Shown in pieces: positions 23,615-51,067 of a stretch of DNA of 64,000 nt. The stretch is from Candidatus Omnitrophota bacterium (lineage in GTDB: Bacteria; Omnitrophota; Gorgyraeia; Gygaellales; Profunditerraquicolaceae): assembly GCA_041651035.1 (NCBI GenBank), contig JBAZKC010000002.1:30884-94883 (forward strand), given 5' to 3'. The notes under the pieces are model-generated. The model had not been told where the DNA came from, ran no database searches, and worked only from the letters and a program-made list of their open reading frames with translations. Within the stretch, counting starts at the first letter, position 1. Every line of letters starts with the position of its first letter. The position numbers were made by a program, and so were the translations under genes.

Positions 23615-23690
23615 GGGGCAGTAGCTCAGTTGGGAGAGCGTCGCGTTCGCATCGCGAAGGCCGTGGGTTCGAATCCCATCTGCTCCACCA
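23615..23690 (+). tRNA. tRNA-Ala (anticodon CGC)
   Basis: 76 nt cloverleaf folded by hand: acceptor GGGGCAG/CUGCUCC with a G3:U70 wobble (the Ala identity element), D-arm GCUCAGUUGGGAGAGC, anticodon loop UUCGCAU, T-loop GUUCGAAUCC, encoded CCA, then a T6 tract. Confidence 0.9.
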
Positions 23691-26944: not shown

Positions 26945-27685
26945 ATGAACAGACTTTATTCTCCTTCTCAAAGTGTTTCCGGTGATACTATAACCTTTGA
27001 CAATAAAGAGCAGGTCCATCATGCCAGAAATGTTTTAAGGCTTAAAGTAAATGAGGAAGTTATAATATTTGACGATAAGGGCAATGAGTACTTCTGTGCT
27101 GTAGAGAAAATACTTCCGGAAAGTATTATTTTTAAGGTTAAAGAAAGAAAGGTTCCTATCAATACACTATCAAAGGTCAAGATCACAGTTGCCTGCGCTA
27201 TACCCAAAGCTTCTCATATGGATGACATTGTTGATAAGCTTACACAATTAGGGGTAGGCGCGATCATCCCTATGGAGACCGAGCGTGTGATCGTAAAGCT
27301 GGATAAGCGCAAGAAAATCTTACGCCAGGAGCGATGGGAGAAGATCATTCTAAACGCAAGCCAGCAAAGCCAGAGAAATACTTTAGCTGTATTAGAGCCG
27401 GTAAAGAAGATGGAGGGGGTGTTATCCGAATCAGCCGGTTACGATTTAAAACTGATACCCGCCTTGATAGGGGATAGGAAGCCGCTAAAAGAAGTCCTGG
27501 GTAAATATAAGCCAAAGAATATACTGGTATTAATAGGCCCCGAAGGTGATTTTACCGTCGAGGAAGTTGATTTAGCAATAAAATCCGGTTTTATACCGGT
27601 TACATTAGGGGATTCGGTCCTGCGCGTGGAAACCGCCGCTGTTAGTGTTGCGGCTTTTATCCGGCTATATTATGAAAACAGTTAA
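26945..27685 (+). CDS. rsmE: 16S rRNA (uracil1498-N3)-methyltransferase
   Basis: 246 aa, RsmE family layout (PUA-like N-domain, SPOUT C-domain ..LIGPEGDFT..). Confidence 0.8.
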   Translation: MNRLYSPSQSVSGDTITFDNKEQVHHARNVLRLKVNEEVIIFDDKGNEYFCAVEKILPESIIFKVKERKVPINTLSKVKITVACAIPKASHMDDIVDKLTQLGVGAIIPMETERVIVKLDKRKKILRQERWEKIILNASQQSQRNTLAVLEPVKKMEGVLSESAGYDLKLIPALIGDRKPLKEVLGKYKPKNILVLIGPEGDFTVEEVDLAIKSGFIPVTLGDSVLRVETAAVSVAAFIRLYYENS

Positions 27686-28967
27686 ATTCATTACTTTAGG
27701 CTGTAAGGTAAATCAATTTGATACCCAAAGTATAAGAGAGAGGTTCTTAGGGGCAGGGTACTCGGAAATAGATAACGGAAAACCCGCGGATATTTACCTG
27801 ATTAATACCTGCACAGTTACGCATAGGGCGGACTCTGATTCTCTTAATCTTATCCGCAAAGCAAAAAGAGAGAACTCCCGCGCCAAGATCATAGTTACCG
27901 GCTGCCTTACAGAACTTGATGAAGATTTAATAAGGCAGGCTGCAGCCAAGGTGATAATTGTAAAAAATAAGGATAAAGAAAAGCTGCCTTCACAGGGACT
28001 GACCCCGAAATATAACTCCCGAAGAGCTGTTCTTAGGGGTCTGTCCCTAAGAGCCAACAGCATTTCTTACTTCAAAGGCCACACCCGCGCATTCTTAAAA
28101 ATTCAGGACGGCTGCGATAATTTTTGTTCTTACTGCAAAGTCCCGTTAGTAAGAGGGAGATCGCGTAGCCGTGGCTTAGACAAGATTGTAAGCGACGCGC
28201 GGCAGCTGGTAAAAAACGGTTTTAAAGAGATAGTGCTATGTGGTATTTGCCTGGGTTCGTATGGTAAAGGCTTAAGCAGCGGCAAAAATCTTGTTGATGT
28301 GATTGAAGCGCTGGAAAAAATAGACGGGTTATTGCGCATCAGGTTGAGTTCTATAGAAGCAGGTGATGTTTCAGATAAATTGATTGCTAAGATGGCAGGC
28401 TCCGAGAAATTATGCCCGCATCTGCATATTCCTATCCAAAGCGGTGATGACGATATTTTAAAGAAAATGAACCGCCGCTATAGCCGTAAGGATTATCTGG
28501 CGCTTATCAAAAGAATAAAAAAGAATATTCCCGAAGTTGCCATTACTACGGATGTATTAGTAGGTTTTCCCGGAGAATCTGAATGCAACTTTCAAAATAC
28601 CCTGAAATTAATCAAGGAAATTCTGCCTTTAAAAGTGCATATTTTCCCTTATTCTCCGAGAAAAGGCACACTGGCTAGCGCAAAATTCAATCAAAGGATA
28701 GACCCTGGAATAATAAAAGAAAGGATTGCCCGGCTTAAGGACGTCGCCGGCAGTTGTTCGCTTGAATATAAAAAACAATTCTTGAATAGGAATATGCAGG
28801 TGCTTGTTGAAGGCCGTTCCAAAGAAAACCCCGCTTTCTGGCAGGGCCATACAGGAAATTTCCTAGAGGTTCTAATAAGGTTAGATCTTAATCTAAGCAA
28901 TAAAATCGTTACAACTAAATTAAGAAAACTAAAGGACGATTTTGTTTTAGCGGAGATTTTTCATTAG
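27675..28967 (+). CDS. mtaB: tRNA methylthiotransferase, MtaB/MiaB-like (MTTase N-domain, radical SAM, TRAM)
   Basis: MKTVKFITLGCKVNQFDTQ.., CDNFCSYCKVP radical SAM cluster. Carries a 61-bp in-frame palindromic element at 27993-28053 in the inter-domain linker. Confidence 0.85.
   Translation, partial: KTVKFITLGCKVNQFDTQSIRERFLGAGYSEIDNGKPADIYLINTCTVTHRADSDSLNLIRKAKRENSRAKIIVTGCLTELDEDLIRQAAAKVIIVKNKDKEKLPSQGLTPKYNSRRAVLRGLSLRANSISYFKGHTRAFLKIQDGCDNFCSYCKVPLVRGRSRSRGLDKIVSDARQLVKNGFKEIVLCGICLGSYGKGLSSGKNLVDVIEALEKIDGLLRIRLSSIEAGDVSDKLIAKMAGSEKLCPHLHIPIQSGDDDILKKMNRRYSRKDYLALIKRIKKNIPEVAITTDVLVGFPGESECNFQNTLKLIKEILPLKVHIFPYSPRKGTLASAKFNQRIDPGIIKERIARLKDVAGSCSLEYKKQFLNRNMQVLVEGRSKENPAFWQGHTGNFLEVLIRLDLNLSNKIVTTKLRKLKDDFVLAEIFH
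27993..28053. repeat. Type A GGGAC/GTCCC palindromic element, in-frame inside mtaB
   Basis: cagggactgaccccgaaatataactcccgaagagctgttcttaggggtctgtccctaagag; translated as QGLTPKYNSRRAVLRGLSLRA. Confidence 0.8.
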
Positions 28968-31303: not shown

Positions 31304-31405
31304 GACAGGGACAGCCCCCAATAGCGGCGGGACACTTTCCATTGAGTTACCTTGTTTTAGCTCTGATGGAAGGTGTCCCGTAACTGTTTTCGGGGACAGT
31401 CCCTT
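31304..31405. repeat. Composite nested palindromic element (gggacagcccc .. gggacactttcc .. ggaaggtgtccc .. ggggacagtccc) followed by a T6 tract
   Basis: Seen directly: outer gggacag arms and inner gggacac/gtgtccc arms. This may act as a terminator. Confidence 0.7.
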
Positions 31406-31459
31406 TTTTAAAATAATTTCCCTTGCTGAAGGCCGTTTTTATGATAGAATTTACATATT

Positions 31460-42271: not shown

Positions 42272-42339
42272 GGGACACCCTTTTTGCCAATCGAGGGACA
42301 CCCTTTCAGCTAATCGGGAGGGTGTCCCTTCAAGGGACA
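42272..42339. repeat. gggacaccc-type palindromic element (two direct gggacaccctttt copies plus inverted agggtgtccc) between rpsA and tyrS
   Basis: gggacaccctttttgccaatcgagggacaccctttcagctaatcgggagggtgtcccttcaagggacat; can form a 9-10 bp hairpin. Confidence 0.7.
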
Positions 42340-42343
42340 TAAA

Positions 42344-43528
42344 ATGCAAAAACCGGATATAAAAAAACAACTGGAGATAATAAAACGCGGCGCGGTGGAT
42401 ATTATCTCTGAGGATGAGCTTAAGCAGAAATTGGAAGCGAGTATTAAATCCGGCAAACCGCTTAAGATTAAAGCCGGTTTTGATCCTACAGCTCCTGATA
42501 TCCATCTGGGGCATATAGTGCTTTTGCGCAAGCTGCGCCAGTTCCAGGAGCTTGGGCATGAAGTCATCTTTTTGATCGGTGATTTCACCGGTCGTATCGG
42601 AGACCCCAGCGGCCGTTCCGAGATCCGCAAGCAGCTTACTGCCGAAGAAGTGGCTAAGAATGCCGAAACATACCGCAGGCAGATTTCAAAAGTCCTCGAC
42701 ATTAAGAAGATCAAGATCGTTTTTAACAGCTCCTGGTTCGAGAAGCTATCTTTAACCAGTATGCTCCATCTTGCCATGTGCTCTTCAGTCGGCCAGATGC
42801 TTGCCCGCGATGATTTTAAGAAGCGTTATACCAAAGGCGAAAACATCTCCATACTTGAATTTATCTATCCGCTCCTTCAGGGATATGATTCGATTAAGCT
42901 TGAGGCTGATGTTGAGCTCGGCGGGACAGACCAGGTTTTTAATCTTTTGATGGGCAGGGAGCTCCAGAAAGATTTTAACCAGCCTCAACAGGTAGTCATT
43001 ACTATGCCGCTTCTGGAAGGCACTGATGGGGTTAACAAGATGAGTAAGTCTTCGGGTAATTATATCGGCATTAACGAAAGCCCTTCTGAAATGTTCGGAA
43101 AGATCATGTCCATATCCGACGCGTTAATGGTCAAGTATTACGAATTGTTGACGGATGAAGACCTGGCTGCGGTAAAGAGTATGCACCCTAAGGAAGCAAA
43201 GATAAAATTAGCCCGGGAGATCGTCGCGCAGTACCATTCCCCGGAAGACGCAAAGCGGGCCCAGGCGGAATTTGACCGCGTATTCAGCCAGAAAGAATTG
43301 CCGGATGATATTCTAGAATATAAAACAAACGGGACAGAGACGATCCTGGCCATATTATTAAATACCGGATTGGTAAAAAGTGGCAATGAGGCACGCAGGC
43401 TCCTAAAGCAGGGGGCGGTTATCTTCTGTGACGCTAGAATAGAAAAGGATAGTTTTATCCCCCAAGAAAGCGGCATCTTGAAAGTCGGCGCGCGCAGGTT
43501 CTTGAAAATTACATGCCCAATAAAATAG
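42344..43528 (+). CDS. tyrS: Tyrosine--tRNA ligase
   Basis: HLGH (HIGH-class) and KMSKS motifs, C-terminal S4-like domain. Confidence 0.92.
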
Positions 43529-44802: not shown

Positions 44803-45600
44803 ATGCGCGACATAAAAGGAAAGGTTTCCATAATCATGCCTGCTTATAATGAAGCAGGCCGCATCGCCGCCAGCATAGAAGAAACAGCCAAAACTTTTAA
44901 CGAGTTTGGGTGCTCTTGGGAGCTCATCGTGATGGATGACGGCTCAAGCGACGATACGTATGAGTTTACCAGAGAAATTTCCAAAAAATACCCCGCCGGC
45001 CGGATTATTATCAAAAAGAACCCTTTTAACATGGGTAAAGGCAGGGCGCTTAAAAAGGCATTACGTTACATAAGCGGGGATTACGCGGTGTTCTTAGACG
45101 CGGATATGGATTTGCACCCCATACAGGTTCAAACGCTTTTTGACATCATGCGCCTGGATAACGCTGATATAGTCATAGGCTCTAAATTGCACCCTAATTC
45201 AATAGTGGATTATTCTTTCCAGCGCAGGCTTTATAGCTGGGTTTATTATTTGTTGGTAAAGATGCTTTTTGGCCTGCCTTGTCATGATACTCAAACCGGC
45301 CTTAAGTTATTTAAGACCGAGGTCTTGCGAAAGGTTTTCCCCCGGATACTGGTAAAGAAATTTGCCTTTGACCTGGAGGTTTTGGTAAACGCGCACCACT
45401 TAGGATATAAAATGGCGGAAGCCCCGATAGTGCTTAGTCCCCAAAGGCGTTATGGCCGTATTGGGCTCAATGCCGTCTTTGTTACTTTATGGGATACCCT
45501 GGCAATATTCTATCGGATGCATATTTTAAAATATTATGACCGTATCCATTATTATCGTCGTAAAAACCTGGCAAAAGAATTTAGAAGAATGCGTAGGTAA
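44803..45600 (+). CDS. Glycosyltransferase family 2 (DPM/undecaprenyl-phosphate sugar transferase-like)
   Basis: VSIIMPAYNE..DDGSSDDT..FLDADMD motifs. Confidence 0.85.
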   Translation: MRDIKGKVSIIMPAYNEAGRIAASIEETAKTFNEFGCSWELIVMDDGSSDDTYEFTREISKKYPAGRIIIKKNPFNMGKGRALKKALRYISGDYAVFLDADMDLHPIQVQTLFDIMRLDNADIVIGSKLHPNSIVDYSFQRRLYSWVYYLLVKMLFGLPCHDTQTGLKLFKTEVLRKVFPRILVKKFAFDLEVLVNAHHLGYKMAEAPIVLSPQRRYGRIGLNAVFVTLWDTLAIFYRMHILKYYDRIHYYRRKNLAKEFRRMRR

Positions 45601-46507
45601 GTGCCTCAAACTCGACTCTGCTGAGTTTGAGATCTTGATCTTGCCTGACGAACCTATTGCCCAAAGGGACAGTCTCTGTTCGGGGACAGTCCCTATTAGA
45701 GTTATTCCCACGGGCCCTGTGTCTCCGGCTGATAAGCGGGACATAGCCATAAAATACGCGAAAGGAGACATCGTTGCTTTTATCGATGACGATGCCTATC
45801 CGGTAAAAGATTGGCTTAAAAACGCGTTAGAGAATTTTAAAGATGAAGAGGTGGCCGCGGTAGGGGGGCCGGCAATAACCAGCCCTCTGGACAGCTTAAG
45901 ACAAAAAGCAAGCGGCGCGATATATTCGTCGTTTTTAGTAAGCGGGGGATTTGTCTATCGTTATCTGCCTAAGGAAAAAAGAGAGATAGATGATTATCCG
46001 AGTTGTAATCTTCTGGTCCGTAAATCCATAATGCGGGAGTTAGGCGGTTTTAATACCAAGTTCTGGCCGGGAGAAGATACTAAGCTTTGCCTGGATATAA
46101 CTGTCAGGCTCGGTAAAAAGATAATTTATGACCCCGGTGTCCTGGTTTATCATCACCGCCGGCCGGTCTTTGTCCCCCATCTTAAGCAGATAGCTAATTA
46201 TGCCCTTCATCGCGGTTATTTCGTAAAGAAATACCCCGAAACCTCTTTAAAGTTGCCTTATTTTATTCCCACGCTATTTCTATTCGCGCTGACAATAGGC
46301 GCTATCTTGTCTATGGTTTCAGCTCCCATTAGAATAATTTATTCTTTAGGGTTGTCGTTATATTTAATTTCAGTTTTTATTTCTAGTATTCGTAATGGCG
46401 CGCGTTTGGCACCTTTTGTATTTTTCGGCATAATATTTACTCATTGCACCTATGGTTTTTATTTCCTGAAAGGCCTTTTTTACCAGAAGCTTTCCGAAGA
46501 AAAATAA
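45536..46507 (+). CDS. Glycosyltransferase family 2 with C-terminal membrane helices
   Basis: VSIIIVVK..IDDDAYP; contains a 28-bp in-frame GGGAC element at 45666-45693 (SLCSGTVP). The start overlaps the upstream GT2 by 65 nt. Confidence 0.75.
   Translation: MTVSIIIVVKTWQKNLEECVGKCLKLDSAEFEILILPDEPIAQRDSLCSGTVPIRVIPTGPVSPADKRDIAIKYAKGDIVAFIDDDAYPVKDWLKNALENFKDEEVAAVGGPAITSPLDSLRQKASGAIYSSFLVSGGFVYRYLPKEKREIDDYPSCNLLVRKSIMRELGGFNTKFWPGEDTKLCLDITVRLGKKIIYDPGVLVYHHRRPVFVPHLKQIANYALHRGYFVKKYPETSLKLPYFIPTLFLFALTIGAILSMVSAPIRIIYSLGLSLYLISVFISSIRNGARLAPFVFFGIIFTHCTYGFYFLKGLFYQKLSEEK
45666..45693. repeat. Short gggacagtc / ggggacagtccc element inside the GT2 CDS
   Basis: gggacagtctctgttcggggacagtccc. 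Confidence 0.6.
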
Positions 46508-46508
46508 T

Positions 46509-46744
46509 GGGGACGGTTCTCTTCGAGAACCGTCCCCAGGTTTCACCAAAACAGGGACTGGTTCCGAAAGCTATTTAAAATCGCGGGGATAATTTGTCAT
46601 TCTGAACTACTACTCTTTTAGTCATTCTGAGCGAAGCGAAGAATCTGTTTTTAGATTCTTCGGCCTGCGGCCTCAGAATGACGACAAGACAGGGACTGGT
46701 CCCGAAAAGTAGCTCAATATAGACTGTTCTTAGGGACCTGTCCC
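46509..46744. repeat. Intergenic nest of palindromic elements: a type B hairpin, a partial type A arm, a long gtcattctgag hairpin and a full type A element
   Basis: 46509-46537 ggggacggttctcTTCGgagaaccgtcccc (13-bp stem, UUCG loop). 46552-46575 cagggactggttccgaaagc. 46621-46682 gtcattctgagcgaagcgaagaatc..gattcttcg..ctcagaatgac, with an extra gtcattctga copy at 46596. 46690-46744 cagggactggtcccgaaaagtagc..ctgttcttagggacctgtccc. Confidence 0.8.
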
Positions 46745-46754
46745 AAAAATAAAT

Positions 46755-48248
46755 ATGAAAATTATAATTTCTTACCCGCCGTTAAAGAACCAAAAAGGCT
46801 GCCCTACGCTTGGCCAAAACCGCCAGTTCCAGTATTTTAAAGACGAAACATTTATTTATCCGGTAGTCCCGGCGCAGGCGGCTACACTGCTAAAACAAGC
46901 AGGGCATGAAGTTATTTGGAATGATTGCCTGGCTCAAGGCTGGGATTACAAAAGGTTCCTTGATTTTATAAAATCTGAGAATCCTGACCTGATCGCTTTT
47001 GAAACAAAAACTCCCGTGATCAAGCAGCACTGGCAGATAATAAACGATATTAAGGGACTGTCTCTGAATGCCCCTAAGATAGCCTTATTCGGCGACCACG
47101 TTACTGCTCTTCCGGAAGAATCATTCCAGAATTCAAAAGTAGACTTTGTATTGACTGGAGGCGACTATGATTTCTTGCTTCTGAATTTATGCAATAACCT
47201 TCAGGGGACGGTTCTCAAAGAGAACCGTCCCCATGTTTTGCCTGCCCCTGAGTTTGAACCCGGCATCTATTATCGCGAAAACAACCAAATTAAAAATACC
47301 GGAAAATTTGAGCTTAACCATGACTTAAATTCACTCCCGTTTATCGATCGTGACTTAACCAAGTGGCAGCTATATGCCCGTAAGAACGGAAATTATAAGA
47401 GGACTCCCGGGACCTACATTATGTCCGGCAGGGATTGTTGGTGGGGAAAATGCACATTTTGCAGCTGGGGGAGTTTCTATCCGTCATTCCGCAGCCGCTC
47501 TGCCAGTAACGTGTTGGATGAGATCGGTGATCTGATAAAACGGTATGGGGTAAGAGAAATAATGGATGATACGGGTAGCCTTCCTACAGGAGGGTGGCTT
47601 AGAGAATTTTGCCGGGGCATGATCTCGCGCGGCTATAATAAAAAAATTTATTTAGACTGCAATATGCGTTTTGGCGCGTTGTCAGCGGAAGAGTACCGGC
47701 TGATGAAGGAAGCCGGGTTTCGTCTGCTTTTATTTGGCTTAGAATCCGCGAATCAGTATACTTTAGACAGGGTAAATAAGAAACTGCGGGTTCAGGATAT
47801 TATTGATTCCTGTAGATCAGCCCGTAAAGCAGGGTTATTCCCGCATATTACGCTTATGTTTGGTTACCCTTGGGAAAGTTATTCCGATGCCTTAAACACC
47901 CTAAAACTGGGGAAATGGTTATTGACTAAGGGTTGCGCTTATACGATGCAGGCAACTGTAGTTATCCCGTATCCCGGCACTCCTCTTTTTGAAGAATGCA
48001 GGAAAGAACGTTGGCTAAAGACCTTAGACTGGGATGATTATGATATGAAGAAGCCTGTGATGACAACCGCCATACCCGATAATAAAATTTTAGGGTTGGT
48101 CCAGGATATGTATAAAGTTTCTTTCCGACCGGATTTTATTTTAAGAAAGATATTTTCCCTAAGGGATATTGAAGATGTAAAATACTCTTTGCGCGCGGCA
48201 AAGAAGGTGTTGGGGCATATTTTTGATTTTAAGAAGGGGGAAAGATGA
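46755..48248 (+). CDS. B12-binding domain radical SAM protein (sugar-modifying candidate)
   Basis: 497 aa, cobalamin-binding N-domain, radical SAM core. Contains an in-frame type B element at 47205-47233 (GTVLKENRPH). Confidence 0.75.
   Translation: MKIIISYPPLKNQKGCPTLGQNRQFQYFKDETFIYPVVPAQAATLLKQAGHEVIWNDCLAQGWDYKRFLDFIKSENPDLIAFETKTPVIKQHWQIINDIKGLSLNAPKIALFGDHVTALPEESFQNSKVDFVLTGGDYDFLLLNLCNNLQGTVLKENRPHVLPAPEFEPGIYYRENNQIKNTGKFELNHDLNSLPFIDRDLTKWQLYARKNGNYKRTPGTYIMSGRDCWWGKCTFCSWGSFYPSFRSRSASNVLDEIGDLIKRYGVREIMDDTGSLPTGGWLREFCRGMISRGYNKKIYLDCNMRFGALSAEEYRLMKEAGFRLLLFGLESANQYTLDRVNKKLRVQDIIDSCRSARKAGLFPHITLMFGYPWESYSDALNTLKLGKWLLTKGCAYTMQATVVIPYPGTPLFEECRKERWLKTLDWDDYDMKKPVMTTAIPDNKILGLVQDMYKVSFRPDFILRKIFSLRDIEDVKYSLRAAKKVLGHIFDFKKGER
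47205..47233. repeat. Type B palindromic element in-frame inside the radical SAM CDS
   Basis: ggggacggttctcaaagagaaccgtcccc (13-bp stem, aaa loop). Confidence 0.75.
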
Positions 48249-49114: not shown

Positions 49115-49952
49115 AATCCTTATTTTAGGCAATGGTTATATCGGTAATAGGCTTTGCGAGGAGCTCGGAGCCGAGCTTGCCGGAGGGAGGATCAGTTCTT
49201 TGCTAGATGCGCAAGAACAGATCCAGATGTATAAGCCTAACATCATTATTAACTGTATCGGGCATACCGGAAGAAACGTTGATGATTGCGAACTGGATAA
49301 GGATAAGACATTAATGGCGAATACATTTGTCCCCGTGATCTTAGGCGAAGCGGCGCTGCGCGATAATATTAAACTCATCCATATCAGCAGCGGATGTATT
49401 TACAAATTTGATTATTCTCAGGATAGTCCTATTAAAGAAGATAAGACGCCCGATTTCTTTAGGCTCTTTTATAGCCGGACCAAGATATACGCCGAACAGG
49501 CGTTAAAGGCATTGTTTAAAGAATGTCCGGCACTGATCGTCAGGATACGCATACCGCTGGACAACCGGCCCCATCCTAAGAATCTGCTTACTAAGCTGCT
49601 GGAGTACAAGAAGATTATCGATATTCCCAATTCAGTTACCTATATCCCAGATTTTATAGAAGCTTTAAAACATTTGATCCATATTAATGCCGAGGGTATT
49701 TACAATGTCGTCAATAGAGATGGCTTGCGCTACCCCGACCTTTTAGATGCATATAAGAAATACATTCCGGATTTTCAATACCGGGTCGTTGACTACAAGG
49801 AATTGAATTTAGTAAGGACTAACCTGATATTGTCTACGGCTAAACTCCAGAGATCCGGCTTTAAGGTGAGAGATATTAATTCTGTTTTAGACGAATGTGT
49901 AAGGGGATATTTGGGATATTCAGGGACTGTCCCCACCAAAGCTATTAGTTAG
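49104..49952 (+). CDS. dTDP-4-dehydrorhamnose reductase-like (RmlD substrate-binding family)
   Basis: ILILGNGYIGNRL Rossmann, HISSGCIY, YSRTKIYAE catalytic YxxxK. The last 10 codons and stop are encoded by the palindromic element at 49921. Confidence 0.65.
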   Translation: MKNKILILGNGYIGNRLCEELGAELAGGRISSLLDAQEQIQMYKPNIIINCIGHTGRNVDDCELDKDKTLMANTFVPVILGEAALRDNIKLIHISSGCIYKFDYSQDSPIKEDKTPDFFRLFYSRTKIYAEQALKALFKECPALIVRIRIPLDNRPHPKNLLTKLLEYKKIIDIPNSVTYIPDFIEALKHLIHINAEGIYNVVNRDGLRYPDLLDAYKKYIPDFQYRVVDYKELNLVRTNLILSTAKLQRSGFKVRDINSVLDECVRGYLGYSGTVPTKAIS

Positions 49953-49981
49953 CCATAACCAAGGGGACTGTCCCTAAAGAG
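49921..49981. repeat. Type A-variant palindromic element spanning the rfbD-like 3' end
   Basis: cagggactgtccccaccaaagctattagttagccataaccaaggggactgtccctaaagag. Confidence 0.75.
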
Positions 49982-49990
49982 GGTGGTATA

Positions 49991-51028
49991 ATGACCAATA
50001 AATCTATCTTGATTACCGGCGGCGCGGGTTTTATCGGCAGCGCCTTTGTAAGATTGTTAAATCAAGGGGACGGTTCTGCCTTTGGTAGAACCGTCCCCGA
50101 GTTTCACAGAACAGGAACTGTCCCTAAGATTATAGTAGTAGACAGCCTTACCTATGCCGGAGATTTAAAGCGTCTTAAAGAAGCAAAGGGCAGATTTAAG
50201 TTCTACAAAGTTGATATTTGCGATAAGAAAAGAATGGAAGCGGTCTTCGCGAAAGAAAAACCGCAAGCCGTAGTGCACTTTGCCGCGGAAAGCCACGTTG
50301 ACCGCAGTATTAATGATGCTACGCCATTTATTGAAACTAATATTAAGGGCACACAAATTCTTCTTGATGCCGGCCGCAAGCACGAGATAAATAAATTTAT
50401 TTTTATTTCCACCGACGAGGTCTACGGAGAGATTGCCAATGGCAAGTTTAACGAAAATTCTCCAATTAGGCCGAACAGCCCTTACGCGGCTTCTAAAGCG
50501 GCAGCAGACCTCCTGGTGCAGGCATATATCAGGACTTACAAATTCCCCGCGATAATTATCCGGCCGTCAAATAATTACGGCCCCTGGCAATACCCGGAAA
50601 AACTCATTCCCTTAGCTGTTTTAAAAATATTGCGCGATAAAAAAGTGCCTGTTTATGCTCAGGGCAAGAATGTCCGGGAGTGGCTTTATGTGGAAGACTG
50701 CGCGAAAGGAATTATGCGGATATTGCAAACGGGAAAGCTTGGGCAGGTTTATAACCTGGGAAGCAATGAAGAAAAACAGAATATAGACGTGGTGAAAATG
50801 ATCTTGAATATTTTCAATAAGCCCGAAAATATGATTGAATTTGTAAAGGACAGGCCCGGGCATGACATACGCTATAGCCTGGATTCCAGGAAGGCCCGTC
50901 GGGAAACTAATTGGAAACCGAAAATAAAGTTCAAAGAAGGCATTAAATTGACCGTATCTTGGTATCTCAAAAACAAGAGTTGGCTTCTTAGTAAATATCC
51001 GTCAGCAGGGACTGGTCCCGAAAAGTAG
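49991..51028 (+). CDS. rfbB: dTDP-glucose 4,6-dehydratase
   Basis: ILITGGAGFIGS.., YAASKAAAD (YxxxK). Has a 62-bp composite element inserted in-frame after the Rossmann motif (50067-50128), and its C-terminus and stop lie inside the element at 51006. Confidence 0.88.
   Translation: MTNKSILITGGAGFIGSAFVRLLNQGDGSAFGRTVPEFHRTGTVPKIIVVDSLTYAGDLKRLKEAKGRFKFYKVDICDKKRMEAVFAKEKPQAVVHFAAESHVDRSINDATPFIETNIKGTQILLDAGRKHEINKFIFISTDEVYGEIANGKFNENSPIRPNSPYAASKAAADLLVQAYIRTYKFPAIIIRPSNNYGPWQYPEKLIPLAVLKILRDKKVPVYAQGKNVREWLYVEDCAKGIMRILQTGKLGQVYNLGSNEEKQNIDVVKMILNIFNKPENMIEFVKDRPGHDIRYSLDSRKARRETNWKPKIKFKEGIKLTVSWYLKNKSWLLSKYPSAGTGPEK
50067..50128. repeat. Composite type B + partial type A element in-frame inside rfbB
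   Basis: ggggacggttctgcctttggtagaaccgtccccgagtttcacagaacaggaactgtccctaag; colinear with the intergenic composite at 46509-46575. Confidence 0.8.
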
Positions 51029-51067
51029 CTTAAGATGAACTGTTCTTAGGGACCTGTCCCTAAAGAG
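51006..51067. repeat. Type A palindromic element overlapping the rfbB stop
   Basis: cagggactggtcccgaaaagtagcttaagatgaactgttcttagggacctgtccctaaagag; the rfbB TAG is the aaaagTAG inside the element. Confidence 0.8.

Follow-up and report, generated by a model that had tools for sequence, protein, structure and literature searches.

Why are a GT2 glycosyltransferase gene and the gene for a B12-binding radical SAM protein, neighbours in a long gene array in which almost all genes are co-directional, separated by 247 nt of densely structured sequence? The two genes lie in a 64,000-nt stretch of a Candidatus Omnitrophota metagenome-assembled genome (MAG), referred to here as the window. The GT2 gene (45536-46507, + strand; Pfam PF00535) ends with a TAA stop codon at 46505-46507, and the radical SAM gene (46755-48248, + strand) starts with the ATG at 46755. 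The spacer is, in our judgement very probably, a mosaic of non-autonomous palindromic repeats resembling the bacterial interspersed mosaic elements (BIMEs), present in this lineage only and placed in a junction at which GT2 and radical SAM ancestrally overlapped by 4 nt (ATGA). Its repeats belong to two unrelated families, a GGGAC/GTCCC family of the Omnitrophota and a multi-phylum doublet of repetitive extragenic palindromic (REP) units. Three direct observations carry this reading: the repeat identity of each module, the anatomy of the REP arm with its covariation, and the comparison of a filled site with empty ones.

The spacer was resolved into consecutive modules, all on the + strand unless stated. 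Module 1 (46508-46538) begins one base past the GT2 stop and is a hairpin, TGGGGACGGTTCTC-TTC-GAGAACCGTCCCCA, with GGGGAC/GTCCCC feet and an inner GGTTCTC/GAGAACC stem. Positions 46508-46521 pair with 46525-46538, forming 13 G/C-rich pairs plus a T:A pair. An initial annotation of this locus had described a perfect stem with a UUCG tetraloop here; the stem is indeed perfect, at 14 bp, but the bases on either side of the UUCG are C and A, so that a C-G pair closes a three-base UUC loop and the cUUCGg tetraloop is absent. Module 1b (46539-46572) consists of a 'gtttcac' linker and a solo left arm of the element that we call type A, CAGGGACTGGTTCCGAAA; this is the partial arm noted earlier, which we place at 46552-46569 with one mismatch to the full arm. 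An A/T-rich linker (46573-46595) that matches no repeat family follows, and then a truncated outer REP arm, GTCATTCTGA (46596-46605), with copies of a 13-nt direct repeat, TTWGTCATTCTGA, at 46593 and 46618. The truncated arm is the third gtcattctga copy of the initial annotation, and by our measurement it lies 15 nt upstream of the hairpin of roughly 62 nt that was also predicted there and is found at 46621-46682. The 62-nt hairpin is composed of a left REP arm (46621-46645; GTC / ATTCT / GA / GC-GAA-GC / GA / AGAAT / C; nhmmer E 4.9e-10) with a canonical GNA-triloop tip, an 8-nt loop between the arms, TGTTTTTA (46646-46653), and an inverted right arm on the - strand (46654-46683; CGTC / ATTCT / GA / GGCC-GCA-GGCC / GA / AGAAT / C) in which the tip hairpin is expanded. 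Last comes the full type A, CAGGGACTGGTCCC ... GGGACCTGTCCC (46690-46744), whose 12-bp stem is interrupted at its centre by a T.T mismatch and which has CGAAA and TGTTCTTAGG as inner motifs; as predicted, it ends 10 nt before the ATG.

Folding of the whole spacer gave -97.4 kcal/mol, compared with -63.8 +/- 4.9 kcal/mol for 200 dinucleotide shuffles (z -6.9; 0/200 as low), and the minus strand behaved similarly (z -8.3), so that the dense structure noted in the initial annotation exceeds chance. Separate folds assigned this structure to module 1 (-26.4 kcal/mol, z -6.7), the 62-nt hairpin with its flanks (-34.0 kcal/mol, z -5.7) and type A (-24.4 kcal/mol, z -3.7). Between the first and second hairpins, 82 nt (46539-46620) that include the A/T-rich linker showed no structure beyond shuffles (z +1.1). 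Dense structure is therefore correct, while the description of a spacer built almost wholly of nested hairpins is not: the three strong hairpins stand side by side, accompanied by two repeat fragments, and nesting holds only for the sub-hairpins within the 62-nt element and for a competing long-range pairing of the partial type A arm with the right arm of the full type A. Two small open reading frames (ORFs) touch the spacer, both entering from flanking sequence; it has none of its own.

Comparison with orthologous junctions revealed that the site is empty in relatives. Three independent Omnitrophota assemblies (L132, L133 and L134) keep the order flippase-GT2-GT2-radical SAM, and their radical SAM proteins are 73-75% identical to that of the window. 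In 3/3 the stop codon of GT2 and the start codon of radical SAM share a 4-nt overlap, ATGA. The GT2 C-termini of the relatives, reading KRLKEEL, KRLKEE and RGLKE up to the stop, align with the QKLSEEK end of the GT2 in the window, as do the radical SAM N-termini, which start with MKIIISYPPL in the relatives and in the window. Since three syntenic relatives have the ATGA overlap, the spacer represents a derived state, inserted into a junction that had translational coupling. No REP arm was present at any of these three loci, although GGGACTGTCCC motifs occur inside genes in all of them. In L128, a fourth relative, no radical SAM gene occupies this position, and neither type A nor a REP arm nor a convincing module 1 copy is present. 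Two further junctions of the window differ from those of the relatives in the same direction. Downstream of RmlB the gap measures 5-9 nt in relatives and 50 nt in the window, where it is filled by type A, and RmlD and RmlB, which overlap by 28 nt in relatives, are 38 nt apart in the window, with GGGACTGTCCC copies across the stop. One GGGACTGTCCC doublet (49923-49975) covers the RmlD-like stop codon and leaves 16 nt up to the ATG of RmlB.

These comparisons also bear on the possibility that the spacer arose as an artefact of assembly, by a chimeric join at a repeat common to several organisms. The source is a MAG, and the left REP arm is identical to arms of unrelated phyla, as such a join would have it. 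Lineage-specific module 1 and type A copies, however, lie on both sides of the REP doublet, the gene order is the same in three independent assemblies, and the common repeat, at 25-62 nt, would be below typical assembly k-mers. We consider an artefact barely credible.

The gtcattctgag doublet was then sought in other genomes with the pattern GTCATTCYGAG-N25-55-CTCRGAATGAC, taking one genome per species, and at least 120 stretches with at least 123 hairpins were collected. The recurrence of this hairpin, which the initial annotation proposed as a check, thus failed within the window, which holds one doublet and one truncated arm and no second doublet, and held among other genomes. The hosts span at least 16 phyla: Planctomycetota, Pseudomonadota, Desulfobacterota-type deltaproteobacteria, Bacteroidota, Gemmatimonadota, Armatimonadota, Bacillota, Chloroflexota, Patescibacteria (Saccharibacteria, Parcubacteria), Acidobacteriota, Omnitrophota, Binatota, Spirochaetota, Latescibacterota, Cyanobacteria and Zixibacteria. 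Cultured hosts include Flavobacterium, Hymenobacter and Acidobacterium strains. The 25-nt arm is built of an unpaired YGTC tag, a 5-bp ATTCY/RGAAT stem, GA opposite GA (a tandem G.A mismatch), a 2-bp GC stem, a GNA triloop and a final C(T). In 202 parsed arms the Y:R pair was T:A in 156, C:G in 44 and mismatched in 2. Five of the 82 doublets with all four boxes parsed have differing arms; in these, pairing is intact inside each arm but broken from one arm to the other. The N of the triloop varies freely (A62 C43 T16 G13), whereas the adjacent positions are fixed at 87-100%, and longer tips are in many cases perfect hairpins of differing stem sequence. Loci of the doublet range from 30% to 70% G+C, and C:G arms are found in those of higher G+C (median 0.61 vs 0.51, p 7e-7).

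No long ORF runs across about 88% of the doublets. By the orientation of the neighbouring genes, 45 doublets have a tandem, 23 a convergent and 12 a divergent setting, and in the tandem and convergent settings the median distances from doublet to gene end are about 40-85 nt. Many 8-kb loci of other genomes contain several arm occurrences, and the arrangement seen here, with a truncated outer arm some 15 nt before a full doublet, recurs in other phyla. Compared with controls, doublets are more often bordered by inverted flanks, complementary runs reaching 6 nt or more in 20% vs 6% and 8 nt or more in 5.9% vs 0.85%, the latter an enrichment of about 7-fold. Perfect inverted flanks of 9-14 nt enclose doublets in L097 (5539-5629), L115, L070, L048 and L036, as if the doublet had been placed in the loop of an older hairpin. 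At three loci (L027:6140-6240, L022:6560-6740 and L070:2330-2360) full doublets adjoin arrays of truncated arms (CGCTCAGAATGAC every ~29 nt, for example) or tandem repeats of arm plus spacer, and these arrays may be footprints of the propagation mechanism. Doublets in L028 (1260-1336; Omnitrophota), L014 and L004 lie within very long, mechanically called ORFs (about 950 to 1180 aa) and may be in-frame intragenic copies.

Nothing that might move the doublet was found beside it. Among the genes around 123 doublets only ubiquitous families were enriched (histidine kinases, ABC transporters, permeases), and tblastn with nine RAYT/TIRYT proteins gave no match in the window and two weak, non-adjacent matches in the 120 loci. 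Spread by phage is not indicated, viral contigs accounting for only 7 stretches, and plasmid records with the doublet carry no annotation on it. A full-text literature search returned no relevant paper for the arm sequence.

The doublet was compared with the CGTC-tagged REPs as their published text describes them (Di Nocera, De Gregorio & Rocco 2013, BMC Genomics 14:522; PMC3733652). According to that description, the REPs carry an unpaired CGTC tag, often TGTC and also CCTC; their stems are 8-9 bp and open with A-T then T-A, their loops are 4-5 nt, and their 3-nt tail is mostly CCA. They occur mainly as dimers with the tags outside, often as heterodimers, most dimer spacers being 20-100 bp. 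They sit between co-directional and convergent genes, preferentially downstream of genes, with some copies intragenic; a transposase is not associated, five phyla are represented, and action at the RNA level has been proposed. The superfamily includes Rickettsia RPE-4/RPE-6 and Neisseria dRS3 (= CGTC-1), and the REP-encoded peptides listed are VIPAKAGI, SFPRKRES and DSRFRGND (PMC3733652). Back-translation of the published peptides (VIPAKAGI etc.) gave CGTCATTCCCGCGAAGGCGGGAATC as the CGTC-1 consensus, and records of Neisseria, Azospirillum and sphingomonads, taxa named in the same text, match it at 100% identity. The CGTC-1 consensus CGTCATTCCCGCGAAGGCGGGAATCCA and the arm in the window have the frame CGTC-ATTCC...GGAAT-C in common, that is, the tag, the outer stem and the next C.

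Measured against this description, the right arm of the window has the tag CGTC (46680-46683, on its own strand) and the left arm AGTC, the tag being unpaired in a single-arm fold; in 124 doublets, nine of the ten commonest triplets before GTC end in T, giving TGTC. The stem, ATTCYGAGC/GCGARGAAT, has 9 positions with A-T then T-A first, two of them forming the tandem G.A mismatch in the inner stem that distinguishes the arm from the published REPs. As in the superfamily, the doublet of the window is an inverted dimer with the tags outside and with differing tips (GCGAAGC vs GGCC-GCA-GGCC), although for the hairpins of other genomes the tags-outside layout was required by the search pattern. 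It is likewise mostly intergenic, between co-directional or convergent genes, with occasional intragenic copies and no linked transposase, as judged from the RAYT/TIRYT search and the neighbour families. The differences lie elsewhere. Loops of CGTC-1 to -4 are 4-5 nt, whereas the tip here is a GNA triloop in 134/202 arms (5 nt only if the closing C-G is counted) or a variable extra hairpin, with tips of up to 23 nt. The dimer spacer is 8 nt in the window and 2-27 nt in other genomes, compared with 20-100 bp in most published dimers. After the stem comes C throughout, as our parse required, then mostly T and sometimes CCA, so that only the first base agrees with the published tail, and the host range is at least 16 phyla against the five published. 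By this comparison of sequences with the text description, rather than with the consensus figure for CGTC-1 to -4, we assign the units of the gtcattctgag hairpin, an inverted dimer, to the CGTC-tagged REP superfamily. Because its loop departs from the published one, the arm points to a separate family within that superfamily, set apart by the description as published.

REPIN/RAYT systems, built on GTAG-tagged REPs (Bertels & Rainey 2011), offer a second comparison. As with the doublet, two inverted units form one long hairpin, each is a hairpin alone, and the copies are dispersed. The doublet, however, has a YGTC tag rather than GTAG and is conserved in sequence across phyla rather than species-specific, and no RAYT gene was found in the window or adjoining the copies in the 120 loci.

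The remaining modules of the spacer belong to the GGGAC/GTCCC repeats, which are an Omnitrophota-restricted family. Type A is a doublet of one GGGAC/GTCCC palindrome, and module 1 has identical GGGAC/GTCCC feet enclosing an extra inner stem. Full type A elements occur in the window at 27993, 28969, 36193, 46690 and 51006, and further copies of module 1 (GGGGACGGTTCTC / GAGAACCGTCCCC) at 47204-47232 and 50066-50098, both within ORFs. Chance expectation for these motifs is 0.03-0.8 (0.03 for type A arms), whereas the window contains three module 1 copies and seven type A arms. From 27 to 52 kb, nine intergenic gaps exceed 35 nt, and elements of the family occupy seven of them. Seven type A copies, two of them the only additional ones returned by a metagenome scan and located on other metagenome contigs, share the 12-bp stem with its central T.T mismatch, show compensatory changes at three stem pairs and conserve the CGAAA and TGTTCTTAGG inner motifs; this number was insufficient for a covariance model. 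A full-text literature search found nothing describing the GGGAC/GTCCC family and nothing relevant on palindromic repeats of Omnitrophota. Classification of type A as a GTAG-type REP was rejected, as GTAG is present in the inner part of 3/7 copies only and on the wrong stem side. The type A end, CAGGG, may be similar to ends listed for ISAs1-family elements. With all structured modules being copies of dispersed repeats and three syntenic relatives lacking the spacer, the suggestion of an insertion hotspot in the initial annotation was supported.

Several observations concern the same family elsewhere in the window. The type A copy at 27993-28050 lies within a mechanically called ORF (27645-28967, GTG start), and either the copy is intragenic or the ORF start is miscalled. 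A hairpin of similar style (GGGACACCCT...AGGGTGTCCC) at 42272-42334, with an extra GGGACACCC upstream, fills the 79-nt gap before the gene at 42344. In a 336-nt gap several GGGAC motifs occur at 31308-31410, where GGGGACAGTCCC followed by TTTTTT resembles a short-stem terminator on the + strand.

Copies of the family have also entered proteins. Module 1, the 'gtttcac' linker and the type A arm recur together, as one unit, at 50066-50124 (+ strand), where they encode GDGSAFGRTVPEFHRTGTVP, approximately aa 26-45 of RmlB. This is the loop that follows the GxxGxxG motif, and the two solved RmlB structures displayed have a gap over most of the stretch. Most of 120 Omnitrophota RmlB homologues (P0001-P0120) carry highly variable inserts in that loop, composed of GLSP, GTVP, RDCP, GDSS, KNRTVP and similar peptides, which, as judged by translation, correspond to the three reading frames of GGGGACNGTCCCC palindromes. 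The copy of module 1 in the radical SAM gene (47204-47232) corresponds to aa ~150-160, in the linker between the B12-binding and radical SAM domains. This linker is hypervariable and repeat-derived among the homologues (P0121-P0240), with examples such as KGLSPQ..GTVP and a second motif type, PITDYRLPIT / RVTSYEL, and the shortest homologues lack the segment. Both proteins thus present a conserved gene with the frame kept and homologues without the copy, as for Rickettsia palindromic elements (RPEs). The in-frame copies resemble the RPEs and the intragenic REPs of Opitutus terrae in being palindromes accommodated in protein loops or linkers (PMC3733652 Additional file 3). They differ in belonging to the GGGAC/GTCCC sequence family, with GTVP, GLSP or RDCP peptides in three frames, and in that the loop is occupied by variable repeat-derived inserts in most of the homologues listed. 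The type A copy at 51006-51060 (+ strand), the second full element considered here, overlaps the end of RmlB, and its inner GTAG provides the TAG stop codon of that gene (51026-51028). GTAG REPs of other bacteria are reported to supply stop codons as well.

Could the spacer nevertheless have been selected as a transcription terminator or insulator between two glycan sub-operons, the hairpin after the GT2 stop ending or attenuating transcription and the later ones serving as back-up? Module 1, a 14-bp perfect G/C-rich hairpin of -26.4 kcal/mol immediately past the stop codon, is what one would expect of a Rho-independent terminator in stem and position, and the spacer as a whole is highly structured. 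The published text on REPs, moreover, places them preferentially downstream of genes and proposes action at the RNA level (PMC3733652). Unlike Rho-independent terminators, however, module 1 has no U-tract on the coding strand. The + strand sequence after it is AGGTTTCACC, which is not that of an intrinsic terminator; no U-tract terminator was found anywhere in the spacer on the coding strand, and in a consensus scan module 1 was terminator-like on the minus strand only. The same module is present within two ORFs that need read-through, one of them (47204-47232) with a hairpin of the -26 kcal/mol class that the consensus scan scored as terminator-like. The spacer offers no sigma-70-like site on the + strand, by consensus scan, from which transcription might restart, and the 4-nt overlaps in three relatives imply that gene separation is not a conserved need. 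A selected terminator is consequently unlikely. Because the ancestral state was translational coupling, any termination effect would be a by-product rather than a conserved function.

Less likely still, and indeed improbable, is a structured small RNA or a cis-regulatory, riboswitch-like leader of the radical SAM gene. The strength of the structure relative to shuffles, the end of type A just 10 nt before the ATG and the three compensatory stem pairs among seven copies would suit such an RNA. At Rfam gathering thresholds, however, the only match in the whole window was a tRNA at 23615, and at E <= 10 the spacer gave chance-level matches of 13-17 bits. The modules are multi-copy repeats found beside unrelated genes and inside ORFs, the orthologous operons have an empty site, the + strand of the spacer lacks a promoter-like site, and the elements are near strand-symmetric palindromes, as expected of DNA repeats. 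The small RNA proposed in the initial annotation is therefore not supported, there being no Rfam match, no conservation at the orthologous site and no + strand sigma-70-like site in the spacer. An integron attC site (no GTTRRRY ends, no cassette array) and a hammerhead or other ribozyme core were considered by eye and dropped.

If the spacer is a mosaic of repeats, did it arrive piecemeal or at once? The block 46508-46744 is bordered exactly by an 8-nt direct repeat, AAAAATAA, read from the sequence at 46500-46507, where it includes the GT2 stop TAA, and at 46745-46752, 2 nt before the ATG. Deletion of the block and one AAAAATAA copy restores a compact junction (stop, 2 nt, ATG), and the block ends are inverted GGGAC/GTCCC feet. 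The repeat may thus be a target-site duplication left by a composite miniature transposon with GGGGAC...GTCCC ends that arrived in one step. It is short and A/T-rich, however, with a rough estimate of 0.02-0.2 for a chance match in the border zones, and, by eye, no clear duplication of the kind that marks classical miniature inverted-repeat transposable elements borders the other type A, module 1 (including in-ORF) and REP copies inspected. The half type A and the truncated REP arm suggest several events, and the whole block was not found a second time in the window. Arrival in one step is accordingly a doubtful version of the mosaic reading.

In the mosaic reading, the GGGAC/GTCCC family would have supplied module 1, the solo type A arm and, ahead of the ATG, the full type A doublet. 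The repeats would have spread at the DNA level, probably by way of single-stranded hairpins on which an enzyme acts in trans; we infer this from the arm-level covariation, the GNA triloops, the nesting in other palindromes and the absence of a linked transposase. They would accumulate and persist at the junction because they are tolerated there. In a polycistronic mRNA the spacer would then form three separate hairpins and uncouple translation of GT2 and radical SAM, a Shine-Dalgarno-like stretch at the end of GT2 having been shifted 250 nt from the ATG. The hairpins are also predicted to have possible side-effects, in that they may slow 3'-5' decay or act as a leaky terminator (partial termination). 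BIMEs of E. coli and their counterparts in Neisseria, the neisserial intergenic mosaic elements (NIMEs), are clusters of different palindromic units and linker motifs that fill operon gaps and vary in arrangement among relatives, and BIMEs bind gyrase, IHF or Pol I. On this general comparison the spacer is alike in being a mosaic of palindromic units in an intergenic operon gap and unlike in its unit sequences and in mixing two unrelated families.

Some points weigh against the mosaic reading. The compensatory changes and conserved loop motifs of type A would also be compatible with selection on an RNA or DNA structure. With one copy of the REP doublet in the 64 kb, its description as a dispersed repeat draws on other genomes, and the mobility of the repeats is deduced from their distribution and from filled and empty sites. 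At 73-75% identity, the relatives do not fix the order and timing of insertion. Effects on transcription, termination and mRNA stability are predictions from sequence.

The surroundings of the spacer are those of a compact array. The + strand carries 63/64 of the non-overlapping ORFs of at least 80 aa in the window, intergenic gaps are mostly below 50 nt, and G+C skew is positive in all 2-kb bins from 20 to 58 kb; together, the skew and the co-directional ORFs are consistent with a long leading-strand gene array. The G+C content profile over the same 20-58 kb was uninformative on the origin of the inserted block.

The spacer itself is thus of an ordinary REP/BIME-like kind with RPE-like in-frame copies, not a new RNA gene, and should be annotated as repeat elements rather than as a small RNA or regulatory leader; the inserts in RmlB and the radical SAM protein should similarly be annotated as repeat-derived, not as functional domains. 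As a clean case of palindromic repeats splitting a translationally coupled gene pair, the junction makes the cost or benefit of insertion measurable. The wider interest, which is not specific to this spacer, lies in the breadth and constancy of the CGTC-type REP and in the phylum-wide colonization of protein loops in Omnitrophota. Relative to the published description, the host range of CGTC-type REPs grows from 5 phyla to 16 or more, among them Patescibacteria (Saccharibacteria, Parcubacteria) and Omnitrophota. Their transposase-free spread has posed a puzzle since 2013, for which the anatomy of the arm and the filled and empty sites provide concrete material. The 25-nt arm is almost invariant across these phyla. 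GNA triloops and tandem G.A mismatches are typical of very stable single-stranded DNA mini-hairpins. It is possible, and we propose it tentatively, that the gtcattctgag arm is kept or moved by a trans-acting enzyme still to be identified or by a universal host function that recognizes the exact hairpin, and that the GGGAC/GTCCC family is perhaps a phylum-wide system targeting gene junctions and protein loops of Omnitrophota. The filled site described here, set against three empty ones, together with the tendency of doublets to lie within other palindromes, could give a lead on the insertion mechanism of the 'orphan' CGTC REPs.

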